From positions 8,195 through 72,194 of the forward strand of contig JAHEJW010000015.1 in NCBI GenBank assembly GCA_024638655.1: a stretch of DNA of 64,000 nucleotides, given 5' to 3'. Under the pieces are notes generated by a model. That model had not been told where the DNA came from. It made no database searches and worked only from the letters and a program-made list of their open reading frames with translations. Source of the stretch: a bacterium. Its GTDB lineage: Bacteria; Actinomycetota; Acidimicrobiia; Spongiisociales; ZC4RG35. Each line of letters begins with the position of its first letter. The first letter of the stretch is position 1. Below are positions 3,236 to 52,528 of the stretch, one piece after another. Both the position numbers and the translations under genes were made by a program.

Positions 3236-4033
3236 ATGAGGAAACTAAGACTGGCACTGCTGACGATGGCAGTTGCCCTTGTGCCGGCATCCGCAGCCCT
3301 TGCGGATTCCCACGAAGGCGAGGTCATCGTGGTACACGGAGTGCCCGATCTGACCGTTGACGTCTATGTCAACGGCGACCTGACGCTCGAGGACTTCGAG
3401 TTCGGCGATGTAGCCGGCCCGCTAGCCCTGCCCGCCGGAAGCTATGACCTCGAGATCTACGCAGCGGATGCCGATCCGGATGCAGACGACCCGGCCCTCT
3501 CCGGCTCGACCGACCTTCCCGGCGGTGCCGTGGCGACCATTGCCGCGTACCTGGGTGAAGGCGCCTCGCCGACACTCGGCGTGTTCGTCGAGGACAACTC
3601 CGAGATCGCTGCCGGTGAGGCCCGTGTCACGGCACGTCACCTCGCCGACTTCGGCGCCGTTGACGTTCTCGCCAACGACGGCGCGGTCTTCGAAGGTGTG
3701 ACCAACGGTCAAGGTGGCGACGCCGATGTCCCGGCCGACACCTACAACATCAAGATCACCGCTGCCGGCGATGCCGACACGGTTGCCTTCGATGCCGATG
3801 TCCCCCTCGGCGAGGGCACCAACACGATCGCGTATGCCATCGGTTCGGTCAGCGGCGGCAGCTTCGAAGTTGCCACTGCGGCCATCTCCGGCCTGGGTGC
3901 TGCTCCTGCGGGCGTCCCCACCGGTGATGCCGGCCTCAGCACTGGCATGAGCCCCTGGATTCCAGTCGCTCTTGCCGGCTTTGCCGCACTTGCCCTGTCC
4001 ACCTCGGTCATCGCTCTCCGGAAGGAGAACTGA
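3236..4033 (+). CDS. secreted DUF4397-domain protein with C-terminal sorting-signal-like tail
   Basis: Signal peptide MRKLRLALLTMAVALVPASAALA. Repeated VHGVPD..VDVYVNG / YDLEIY pattern typical of DUF4397. C-terminus has GVPTGDAG, then the hydrophobic helix WIPVALAGFAALALSTSVIAL, then RKEN. Confidence 0.75.
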   Translation: MRKLRLALLTMAVALVPASAALADSHEGEVIVVHGVPDLTVDVYVNGDLTLEDFEFGDVAGPLALPAGSYDLEIYAADADPDADDPALSGSTDLPGGAVATIAAYLGEGASPTLGVFVEDNSEIAAGEARVTARHLADFGAVDVLANDGAVFEGVTNGQGGDADVPADTYNIKITAAGDADTVAFDADVPLGEGTNTIAYAIGSVSGGSFEVATAAISGLGAAPAGVPTGDAGLSTGMSPWIPVALAGFAALALSTSVIALRKEN

Positions 4034-49215: not shown

Positions 49216-49373
49216 GGCGGGCGCGACTCTAGGCGGCTGACGTGAGCAACCTCGAAGGCGTCGTTCGCCGACAGTGGCGTACGGACCGGACGTGCGGGGT
49301 GGTTTCCGGTGGTTTTTGGAGGAGCGGCAGGGTCTTTCGCATTTGGTGGCAGACCGTCCAAACTGATGCTGTC

Positions 49374-50606
49374 ATGTCGATCGTCGTCCAGAAATACGGA
49401 GGCACCTCAGTTGCCGATCCCGACCGCATCAAGGCGGTGGCGGACAGGATCCGGACAGTCCGGGACCAAGGCGACGATGTCGTAGTCGTCGTCTCGGCTA
49501 TGGGGAAAACAACCGACGAGTTCCTGGCGCTCGCTGCCGAGGTGAGCGACGATCCGTTGCCGCGCGAAATGGACATGCTTCTCACCGCGGGGGAGCGAAT
49601 CACCATGGCGCTCCTAGCCATGGCCCTGAACGACCGGGGAGTCCCAGCGGTCAGCTACACCGGGTCACAGGCCGGCATTCTGACGGACTCCTCCCATGGG
49701 GAGGCGAGAATCACTCGCATAACCGGTGAGAGGGTCAAGGAGTCGCTGGCAGACGGGAAAGCTGTCATTGTCGCCGGGTTTCAGGGTGTCGACCCCGAGT
49801 CCAAAGAGGTGACAACCCTCGGGCGCGGCGGGTCTGATGCCACTGCTGTGGCTCTTGCCGCTGCGCTCGAGGCCGATGCCTGCGAGATATACACCGACGT
49901 CGACGGAGTCTTCACCGCCGATCCCCGGATCGTGCCCGCAGCCCGTAAACTCGACGAAGTCTCTTTCGACGAGATGCTAGAGCTGTCGGCTGGTGGAGCC
50001 GGTGTCCTGATGTCACGCTCGGTCGAGTTCGGGAGACGTTTTCACATACCGATCCACGTCAGGTCGTCATTCCACGACGCACCAGGCACATGGGTGAAGG
50101 AGACCCCCATGGAACAGGCCATCATCAGCGGCATCGCACACGATCGCTCCGAGGCGAAAGTGACGGTGAATGGCGTCCCCGATCAGCCCGGCATCGCCGC
50201 TGCCGTATTCGGTGAGTTGGCCGATGCGGGCCTCAATGTCGACATGATCGTCCAGAACGTCTCACATGACGGCACGACCGACATCAGCTTCACAGTCCCG
50301 AGAGCGAACGTCTCGGAGGCGGAGACGATCTCAAAGCAGGTCGCCGACGAGATCGGTGCCCGGTCGGTCGACGTCGACACAGAGATAGGCAAGGTCTCCC
50401 TCGTCGGAGCGGGGATGAAGTCTCATCCCGGCGTGGCTGCGCGCACATTCAAAGCTCTGTCGGATGCCGGCATCAATATCGAGATGATCTCCACTTCGAC
50501 GATCCGCATCTCTTGTGTGGTCAAGGCCGACCAGGTCGAAGCAGCGGTGAACGCCCTTCACGACGCCTTCGATCCGCCGGTCATCTCCGAAGAGGTGGGG
50601 GCATGA
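49374..50606 (+). CDS. ask: aspartate kinase (alpha subunit reading frame)
   Basis: [27 protein letters not shown]-like motif, two C-terminal ACT domains. Confidence 0.92.
50109..50606 (+). CDS. aspartate kinase beta subunit from in-frame internal start
   Basis: SD GAAGGAG (50096-50102) lies 6 nt upstream of in-frame ATG 50109. The product [20 protein letters not shown]... aligns with the known start of the actinobacterial LysC-beta subunit. Confidence 0.55.
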
Positions 50607-51616
50607 CCGCTCCAGTTGTCGCCGTCGTCGGTGCAACCGGTGCCGTGGGTAGGACCATGGTGTCGATCCTCGACGAGCGCGGCTTCCCACTCTCATCGCT
50701 CCGTCTCATGGCTTCGGCCCGTTCGGCCGGCGGTGTCGTGTCGACCCGATGGGGAGAGGTCGAGGTCGAGGACCTGGCCCACGCCGACCCCGAGGGCATA
50801 GACATCGCCCTGTTCTCGGCCGGGGGAAGCCGGTCGAGAGAACATGCCGGGCGTTTTGTGGACGCCGGAGTCACAGTCATCGACAACTCGTCCGCCTTTC
50901 GCATGGATCCCGGGGTGCCCCTGGTCGTGGCTCAGGTCAACGATGACGCCGCGCAGGGGAACCCGGGCATCATCGCCAACCCGAATTGCACGACCATGAC
51001 ACTCATGATGGCGGTTGGCCCGTTGCACGAAGCAGCCGGGCTTCGATCAGTCGTGGCTACCTCATATCAGGCTGTCTCGGGATCCGGTCAGCAGGGTGTC
51101 GACGAGCTGATGAACCAGAACACGTCCCTGATGCCCGCACCTGAGCTGCTCATTCGCGGGGGATGGACAGAGCCGGAGCACACCGTGTATCGACGTCCGA
51201 TTGGCTTCAACACGTTGCCTTTCGCCGGCAACGAGGTCGACGGTGGTTACACGGACGAGGAGATGAAGCTGGTGAATGAGTCCCGCAAGATCCTCGACAT
51301 CCCGGATCTGATGGTGGAGCCGACATGCGTGAGGGTTCCGGTGCTGGTCGGTCACGGGGTCGCCGCCACACTTCGCTTCGAACGTCACCTGACCGCTGAC
51401 GAGGCGATGGCGGTGCTGAGCTCGGCACCGGGTCTGGCCCTCTGGAAGGATCGGGTCCCCACGGCCCTCGACAGTGCCGGCATTGATGACGTATTGGCTG
51501 GTCGGGTCCGAGAGACACTCGGCGAGCCGGGTGGCATCAACCTCTGGGTGGTTGGGGACAATCTGCGCAAGGGAGCGGCCCTCAACGCCGTCCAGATCGC
51601 CGAGCTGCTTCGCTGA
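50603..51616 (+). CDS. asd: aspartate-semialdehyde dehydrogenase
   Basis: [12 protein letters not shown], active-site [16 protein letters not shown] overlaps the ask stop (ATGA). Confidence 0.92.
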
Positions 51617-51677
51617 CACGTCCCCCGATCTGTCGAGAACCGACCGGCGTTATCCTCCCGAGGCCCAAGGAGAGCTT

Positions 51678-51941
51678 GTGCAGATAGATATCAAGTATTG
51701 CGTGCCCTGAAACTACTTCGACCGCGCCGTGAGCGCGGCTTCGGACATCCTCAGCAACTACCAACACGTCATCGACTCACTCACACTGACGACCGGCTCC
51801 AAGGGAGTCTTCGATGTCACGGTCGACGGTGACCTCCTCTACTCGAAACACGAGACGGGGCGTCATGCCGAGCCGGGTGAGGTTCTCGAGCTCTTCACCG
51901 AGAAGCATGCAGGGGACGTGACTCCCTACGCCCACGGGTGA
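51678..51941 (+). CDS. SelW/SelT/SelH (Rdx) family selenoprotein with in-frame UGA (Sec) at 51708-51710
   Basis: SD AAGGAG (51667-51672) lies 5 nt before GTG 51678. Translation is [63 protein letters not shown].... The two track ORFs (ending 51710, starting 51729) are in the same frame and separated only by this TGA. The C-x-x-U position matches the Rdx redox motif. Confidence 0.75.
51722..51738 (+). other. candidate bacterial SECIS hairpin
   Basis: ccgcgc-cguga-gcgcgg, a 6-bp GC stem with a 5-nt loop containing GU. It starts 11 nt after the UGA. Confidence 0.5.
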
Positions 51942-51988: not shown

Positions 51989-52065
51989 CGGGACGTGGCG
52001 CAGTTTGGCAGCGCGCAGCGTTCGGGACGCTGAGGTCGTCGGTTCAAATCCGACCGTCCCGACCA
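51989..52065 (+). tRNA. tRNA-Pro (anticodon CGG)
   Basis: 77 nt cloverleaf folded by hand. Acceptor CGGGACG/CGUCCCG, D stem GCGC/GCGC, anticodon stem CAGCG/CGCUG with loop UUCGGGA, T arm GUCGG-UUCAAAU-CCGAC, discriminator A, encoded CCA. Confidence 0.92.
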
Positions 52066-52144: not shown

Positions 52145-52462
52145 TCAAGCCCCTTGCTGGCCTTCACTGTGCTCTCTGAGGTACTTCGCCATTCGCTTGC
52201 GCAGCGCCGGATGTGCGTTCCTGAGCCCGAGCTCGACCGCGAACCGAGCATCATCGGCCACCTCGAGGACCACATCCTCACCCTCAGCGCGGACATGGAA
52301 TCCGTCCTCGAGGGCCGTAACCCGGATCTCAGACAACGGCCAGTCCGCAACCTCGCTTTGGCCGGTCCTCAGATGGAGGTGTGCATCGGTGATCTGAACG
52401 ACGACGTTGAGGGGTGGCCCGGCGTCCCCATACATTCGGAGCGTCGCATCGAACGAGCTCAT
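52145..52462 (-). CDS. conserved hypothetical ~105-aa protein, paralog A
   Basis: MSSFDATLRMYGDAGPPL...EIRVTALEDGFHVRAEGEDVVLEVADDARFAVELGLRNAHPALRKRM. Clearly paralogous to 60240-60539. Confidence 0.62.
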   Translation of the reverse strand: MSSFDATLRMYGDAGPPLNVVVQITDAHLHLRTGQSEVADWPLSEIRVTALEDGFHVRAEGEDVVLEVADDARFAVELGLRNAHPALRKRMAKYLREHSEGQQGA

Positions 52463-52528
52463 ACCAGGACCACCCAAGTTGGTGTATCTCCGATCAGAGT
52501 ACCGGAGGCCCCCTTGGCCCGCTGTGTA

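Follow-up and report, generated by a model that had tools for sequence, protein, structure and literature searches.

On the forward strand of the window, by which the whole 64-kb stretch of DNA analysed here is meant, a selW-like gene of the Rdx family extends from position 51678 to position 51941 and comprises 87 codons, one of them a predicted selenocysteine (Sec) codon, plus a terminal TGA. A Shine-Dalgarno-like AAGGAG (51667-51672, forward strand) can be read directly 5 nt upstream of the GTG start codon (51678-51680), from which it is separated by the spacer AGCTT. This GTG is the sole start codon between the Shine-Dalgarno element and a conserved I-x-I-x-YCVP strand, and in alignments it falls on the ATG of orthologs; those at loci L017 and L032, for example, read MQIRITYCVP up to the in-frame TGA. 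The redox motif C-V-P-U (TGC GTG CCC TGA; 51699-51710) ends with that TGA (51708-51710), the predicted Sec codon for residue 11, and translation identifies it as the single internal stop of the gene; the ordinary stop is the terminal TGA at 51939-51941, before which the product ends in YAHG. An 11-nt spacer (51711-51721) leads from the UGA to a SECIS-like hairpin (51722-51738) with a G+C stem of 6 bp and a 5-nt loop.

Mechanical ORF finding divides this gene in two. The resulting ORFs, 51474-51710 and 51729-51941, share one common frame, and the former overlaps the aspartate-semialdehyde dehydrogenase gene (asd), which is read in a different frame. The 17 nt that separate the TGA from the internal GTG at 51729 contain no purine-rich motif comparable to AAGGAG. 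The original prediction had placed AAGGAG 5 nt before GTG 51678, had described the two ORFs as one frame split only by TGA 51708-51710, and had noted a 6-bp GC hairpin at 51722-51738, 11 nt after the UGA; on re-reading, the coordinates of the first were exact, frames and translation agreed with the second, and the hairpin was present as described.

Orthologs were collected with only the part of the gene downstream of the TGA as query, and the best 80 of at least 331 relatives were used. These 80 loci come from 80 species genomes, mostly of Acidimicrobiia (including Ilumatobacteraceae and Ca. Microthrix), with some from Chloroflexota (Ardenticatenaceae, Anaerolineae).

Upstream of the selW-like gene lie a cyclophilin gene on the reverse strand and, on the forward strand, the aspartokinase gene (ask) and asd, which ends at 51616, 61 nt before the selW-like start codon. 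Downstream follow tRNA-Pro (CGG; 51989-52065), which starts 47 nt past the selW-like stop on the same strand, and then genes for an MFS transporter, a DUF3159 protein and pirin; a 110-aa ORF without a Pfam match (52145-52477, reverse strand) lies between tRNA-Pro and the MFS transporter gene. A promoter and terminator scan around the selW-like gene gave no sites, and no terminator-like site was seen between its stop and tRNA-Pro. The ask-asd-selW arrangement (49242-51941) recurs in three Logan contigs, whose 70-aa product is identical to that of the window. When the window neighbours (ask, asd, cyclophilin, MFS transporter and DUF3159) were sought by tblastn in the 80 best loci, there were 0 hits, while a positive control worked. 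The ask-asd-selW-tRNA-Pro arrangement is therefore species-specific, and no functional link is drawn from it. As ask-asd-selW was seen in none of the 80 other species, the gene changes its genomic surroundings as one small unit. At locus L001, the gene order is fumarase, enoyl-CoA hydratase, selW and an ABC-F gene. Screening of the window for a second selenoprotein gene, by GC3 across in-frame TGAs and by the combination of a TGA, a hairpin and a downstream ORF, yielded no convincing candidate.

Family, fold and the residue at the UGA position

For profile searches, the predicted Sec was entered as cysteine. The 87-aa read-through product matches Pfam PF10262 (Rdx) with 66.2 bits (E = 3e-18; cut-off 22.6 bits) over positions 1-71 of the 74-position profile, and it passes NCBIfam TIGR02174 (CXXU_selWTH) with 47.4 bits against a cut-off of 34.2. 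With the equivalog model NF041051 (SelTWH_Campy), it scores 74.3 bits, below the threshold of 88, and on this score the window protein is to be placed as a relative of that equivalog group and not as a member. For the 70-aa ORF from 51729, the match to PF10262 is limited to positions 20-71, and strand 1 and the redox motif are missing from it.

A sequence search of the PDB returned the Cys-type bacterial SelW-related proteins 2fa8, 3dex, 2oka, 2ojl, 2obk and 2p0g, as well as human MIEN1 (2ljk). In these alignments, the YCTQC of the solved homologs 2fa8, 3dex and 2oka lies on the YCVPU of the window protein, so that their second cysteine falls on the UGA. The fold was judged on the AlphaFold2 model of P0052, a full-length Cys ortholog with 63% identity, in place of the window protein itself. 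In this model (pLDDT 86.9), residues 3-10 form strand 1 and residues 16-30 helix 1, with the motif at 10-13. By Foldseek, it superposes on 2fa8 with a TM-score of 0.83-0.85 (rmsd 1.7 Å), on mouse SelW (2npb) with 0.64, and on thioredoxins with about 0.55. A thioredoxin-like beta-alpha-beta-beta-beta-alpha fold is thus predicted from the P0052 model, and the CxxC/CxxU motif stands directly behind the first beta strand, as is characteristic of Rdx proteins. The product would be a small thiol/selenol oxidoreductase, with a Cys-x-x-Sec pair that is expected to alternate between the reduced form and a selenenylsulfide.

The in-frame TGA is a constant feature of the orthologous group. It is found within YC[VFM][PS]-TGA-[DN]Y in all of the 80 best loci, and hence in 81/81 sequences when the window is included; the redox motif is likewise conserved in 81/81, and the spacer has the same length in all 81 ungapped sequences. 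Conserved coding sequence flanks the TGA on both sides in the 80 orthologous loci, each of which possesses, upstream of it, the conserved strand I-x-I-x-Y-C and an earlier ATG. The pattern by which Sec genes are recognized, an in-frame UGA at the cysteine position of homologs with conserved flanks, is therefore discernible in these alignments. It had been proposed that the gene belongs to the SelW/Rdx family, that orthologous cysteines would align with the UGA, and that the family does not begin downstream of the TGA. The first proposal was borne out by the PF10262 and TIGR02174 scores, and the second by the Cys forms described below together with the PDB homologs. The third was borne out by the 80 of 80 orthologs that keep the residues before the TGA.

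Cysteine replaces the UGA, as TGC or TGT, at L081 and L286 and in ten further, more distant loci. One of these, P0052 (L081:289-558), is a full-length database entry with TGC (Cys) at the UGA position. An exact scan for the Cys form (I-x-Y-C-V-P-C-[DN]-Y) across 185,579 species genomes produced 14 matches, two of which (L291 and L296) are not SelW genes. The closest Cys forms, L081 and L286 (reverse strand, near 3812-3838), keep the exact hairpin CCGCGCCGUGAGCGCGG, and are apparently recent Sec-to-Cys conversions that carry a relic SECIS; a "remnant SECIS" has been described for such recent conversions (PMC1794560). The distant Cys forms, from Chloroflexota, Demequina and Thermopolyspora, possess neither the hairpin nor the RAVSA peptide. 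In a separate observation, the Anaerolineaceae MAG NAT123 was found to have both a Sec-type paralog (L075, PABI01000058) and a Cys-type paralog (L297, PABI01000046).

The existence of Cys forms with the same hairpin, and the fact that one TGC-to-TGA change would give the window sequence, raise the question as to whether the gene is a pseudogene, or a Cys-type gene whose TGA arose by an error of sequencing or assembly. Such an explanation is of negligible probability, as three independent Logan assemblies of this protein have an identical TGA, as do 80 other species, and purifying selection is evident on both flanks of it.

A different reading takes the TGA at face value, as a real stop, and regards the 70-residue protein from GTG 51729 as the functional product, possibly accompanied by a 10-residue upstream leader peptide. 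Gene callers do give a product of this type for nearly all orthologs, and a GTG or other start-like codon is often present at the position equivalent to 51729. Truncation by gene callers had, in fact, been foreseen, and among the 120 best database homologs, 118 are entered as products of 69-74 aa, the other two being the full-length entries P0052 and P0050. Yet the 70-aa product would be left without strand 1 and the CxxC/U motif, as reflected in its partial match to the Rdx profile (20-71), while the ten codons before the TGA show protein-level conservation in 80/80 species and correspond, in alignments, to strand 1 and the CxxC of solved homologs. Moreover, the Shine-Dalgarno element stands before 51678 and not before 51729, and GTG 51729 itself sits within the apical loop of a conserved hairpin. 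A genuine stop at 51708-51710 is accordingly considered very improbable, and read-through of the full 87-codon frame is the reading adopted in what follows.

The hairpin downstream of the UGA

The hairpin begins 11 nt past the TGA, and consists of the arms CCGCGC (51722-51727) and GCGCGG (51733-51738) around the apical loop CGUGA (51728-51732). A 56-nt stretch folds at -17.2 kcal/mol, as compared with -11.6 +/- 2.2 kcal/mol for shuffled sequences (z = -2.55), only 1 of 200 shuffles being as good. A longer lower stem, pairing 51717-51721 with 51741-51745, appeared in the single-sequence fold, and was dropped because it pairs in a minority of orthologs.

TGA and hairpin occupy identical codon positions in 80/80 orthologous loci. 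Pairing was analysed by explicit pair counts on an ungapped alignment of 81 sequences, in which pairing at the six stem positions is intact in 90% of cells in register, but in 16-68% when the 3' partner is slid. Compensatory changes are seen at four of the six stem pairs. C-G is replaced by U-A at columns 21/37 (nine sequences) and 24/34 (seven sequences), and G-C by A-U at columns 25/33 (three sequences, from both Actinomycetota and Chloroflexota) and 23/35 (one sequence). At columns 24/34, the alanine codon GCG becomes the threonine codon ACG solely where the arginine codon is CGT, and this protein-changing substitution, restricted as it is to a single arginine codon, points to a constraint on the RNA. 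The covariation is modest, however: the counts of pairs and of pair types changing on both sides lie barely above those of shuffles (73/500), and they are to be read with the overlap of the stem with conserved codons, and the mutual relatedness of the aligned sequences, in mind. RNAalifold, when applied to the alignment, retained the top three pairs alone.

The apical loop and the codons that form the stem are similarly constrained. The loop G at 51729 is invariant (81/81), and the loop U at 51730 is present in 80/81 sequences. Synonymous variation is suppressed at codons 5-9 after the UGA, where the codon entropy within the commonest amino acid is 0.73 bits for Arg, 0.10 for Ala, 0.34 for Val, 0.32 for Ser and 0.98 for Ala; for the other conserved four- and six-fold degenerate codons of the gene, it is mostly about 1.3-2.1 bits (2.13 for Arg +51), with Ala +53 as an outlier at 0.88. 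In the gene of the database entry P0050 (L299:461-733), the stem differs and is shifted by 4 nt (CCAUC-CGUGC-GAUGG), and the CGUG of the loop is kept.

According to published rules for bacterial SECIS elements, 16-37 nt separate the apical loop from the UGA (PMC10778597), and loop position 1 or 2 is a G (PMC13582414). In the window, the distance between the UGA and the loop is 17 nt, and the G is at loop position 2. The proposal that the hairpin is SECIS-like has therefore gained from its conservation in the orthologs, from the compensatory changes and from its agreement with these rules, by which it qualifies as a candidate bacterial SECIS. An Rfam scan of the window reported tRNA-Pro only; Rfam holds no bacterial SECIS family, and is thus silent on the hairpin.

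The scarcity of Cys forms, and the relic SECIS that the closest of them carry, allow a further suggestion to be made, albeit a tentative one whose chances we would put somewhat short of even. The SelW clade of Acidimicrobiia and some Chloroflexota may be essentially obligately Sec-type, and the compact SECIS, not protein function, may be what fixes the five residues R-A-V-S/G/R-A at the start of helix 1. Should this be true, the compact 17-nt SECIS, 11 nt from the UGA, would represent a natural minimal SECIS, and would be useful for engineering Sec insertion in actinobacteria.

Selenocysteine machinery and proposed decoding of the UGA

Motif searches, ARAGORN and tblastn detected no selA, selB, selD or tRNA-Sec in the 64-kb window. 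The same approaches, with an E. coli SelD query for tblastn, likewise found no Sec machinery in the 80 SelW loci. A scan of DNA for a SelD motif led to selD loci from Acidimicrobiales, and one of these served as the query for a search in which 80 matches were listed, mostly from Acidimicrobiales and including Ilumatobacteraceae. In 62 of the 80 matches listed (L205-L284), selD itself has an in-frame TGA, within HGAG-TGA-[AG]CKL. Examples of selD loci are L224:1011, L226:8116, L237:9983 and, on the reverse strand, L140:350-1450. As an observation on these genes in their own right, the selD of Acidimicrobiales and Ilumatobacteraceae would itself encode a selenoprotein, and ORF finders start it after its in-frame TGA. 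Two hairpins follow that TGA, the second of which (GGCGCAC-GUN-GUGCGCC, +29 to +45) has an invariant loop G-U and carries either C or G at positions 35 and 39, in a pattern consistent with covariation.

At least five assemblies contain both a SelW-like gene and a Sec-type selD, namely CALIFY01, JAERSO01, JUEO01 (MedAcidi-G2B), CALLPT01 and JANQPB01. In an Ilumatobacteraceae MAG (L224), selD, selA and selB stand in a row and all exceed their NCBIfam equivalog cut-offs (342 vs 125, 396 vs 268 and 275.5 vs 242, respectively); no SelW locus of this MAG is among the best 80 of at least 331 relatives. These observations are in keeping with a published survey, in which Ilumatobacter coccineus, I. nonamiensis and Ca. 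Microthrix parvicella were recorded as SelD+ SelA+ SelB+, with 15, 10 and 7 selenoproteins, respectively (Peng et al. 2016, PMC5029168). A 2026 preprint reports Sec machinery for 84/84 Actinomarina genomes. The original prediction had taken the selW-like gene to imply selA, selB, selC and selD in the same genome, an implication for which support comes from the relatives and the survey. A tRNA-Sec with the anticodon UCA adjoins selD in 12 of the 80 selD matches listed, mostly in Pseudonocardia (for example, L277:731-826), and in two more loci from the motif scan (L127:579-673 and L106:5124-5217). In the Ilumatobacteraceae selD loci, tRNA-Sec does not adjoin selD, and selC must therefore sit elsewhere in these genomes.

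The decoding proposed here follows the standard bacterial Sec pathway. A ribosome would initiate at GTG 51678 and arrive at the UGA at 51708-51710, while SelB carrying Sec-tRNA(Sec) would bind the hairpin at 51722-51738, 11 nt downstream. Sec would then be inserted in place of termination, and translation would run on to the TGA at 51939-51941.

It could also be asked whether the UGA at 51708 is recoded to a residue other than Sec, that is, to cysteine by a Sec-like tRNA, or to tryptophan or glycine by a reassigned code. In some bacteria, tRNA(Sec)-like tRNAs have been reported to recode UGA to cysteine, which counts in favor of such a reading, as does the database entry P0050, which shows a tryptophan at the UGA position. 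The DNA that encodes P0050, however, reads TGA, and the entry is not reproduced by translation with table 11, so that the tryptophan most likely stems from a gene call made with a code in which TGA is Trp. Homologs possess cysteine at the UGA position, but never tryptophan or glycine. Furthermore, TGA terminates 27 of the 39 coding-like long ORFs in the window, and it also ends the selW-like gene itself; reassignment of the genetic code was rejected, as TGA is the commonest normal stop. Finally, selA and a Sec-type selD occur in relatives, and only Sec requires them. Non-Sec recoding of this UGA is thus highly unlikely.

The window contains a genuine small redox-protein gene in which the in-frame UGA most likely encodes selenocysteine. 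Specifically, with a probability of about 0.92, positions 51678-51941 of the forward strand encode an 87-residue, SelW-like, thioredoxin-fold protein with the predicted active site Cys8-Val-Pro-Sec11, whose UGA is decoded by means of the SECIS hairpin. In the source organism, actual insertion of Sec would be expected on the strength of these sequence comparisons.

In databases, this gene and nearly all of its orthologs appear as N-terminally truncated "Rdx family" proteins from which C-x-x-U is missing, and selD of the same lineage suffers the same truncation in annotation. Without Sec-aware gene callers, both selenoproteins and selenium dependence are consequently undercounted in Acidimicrobiia. 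Acidimicrobiia are abundant in marine, freshwater and soil samples.

Comparison with known selenoproteins and SECIS elements

Like the window protein, mouse SelW (2NPB) and MIEN1/C17orf37 (2LJK) are Rdx proteins with a thioredoxin-like fold and a CxxU or CxxC motif after strand 1. Mammalian SelW is structurally less alike than the bacterial proteins, as judged on the P0052 model (TM 0.64), and the eukaryotic SECIS has a different structure and lies in the 3' UTR, whereas the hairpin in the window is inside the ORF. Eukaryotic partners, such as glutathione and 14-3-3, cannot be assumed for the window protein.

Closer in structure are the solved Cys-type SelW-related proteins of bacteria, among them 2FA8 (Agrobacterium Atu0228) and 3DEX (Streptomyces SAV_2001). 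Together with 2OKA, 2OJL, 2OBK and 2P0G, these share their fold with the P0052 model (TM 0.76-0.89, rmsd 1.4-1.9 Å), and strand 1, the CxxC motif and the RA motif align with the window protein. They differ from it in having YCTQC and about 100-108 residues, as opposed to YCVPU and 87 residues, and identity is about 22-29%.

The candidate SECIS, in turn, can be compared with that of E. coli fdhF, the reference element for bacteria, which is also a hairpin immediately 3' of the UGA within the ORF, with G and U in its apical loop. In its minimal form, the fdhF element consists of an upper stem-loop of 17 nt located 11 nt after the UGA, a geometry equal to that of the hairpin in the window. Unlike the fdhF element, the window hairpin has another sequence and no bulged U in its stem, and it would be bound by the cognate actinobacterial SelB.

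The nearest counterparts are the bacterial SelW-like selenoproteins with C-x-x-U. As the original prediction had pointed out, such proteins are already known; they have been described since 2005, when SelW-like, with 48 genes, was found to outnumber every other selenoprotein family of the Sargasso Sea metagenome (Zhang, Fomenko & Gladyshev 2005, PMC1088965). A survey from 2016 lists SelW-like in 35 organisms (PMC5029168, Table S3), and few Cys homologs of the family occur in Sec-using organisms (PMC1794560), a scarcity that the orthologous group of the window gene shares. As in the window, these selenoproteins are shorter than 100 aa, belong to the Rdx Pfam family and possess C-x-x-U near the N-terminus, and their SECIS stem-loop lies in the coding sequence just past the UGA and has a small apical loop that contains a G. 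The cited selenoprotein literature does not set apart the group with YCVPU[DN]Y...RAVSA found in Acidimicrobiia and Chloroflexota, and this group is stored almost only in the form of truncated products of 69-74 aa. As SelW-like CXXU selenoproteins with a SECIS inside the ORF have been known since 2005, the window gene brings nothing new in principle, and it differs from them in no categorical respect.
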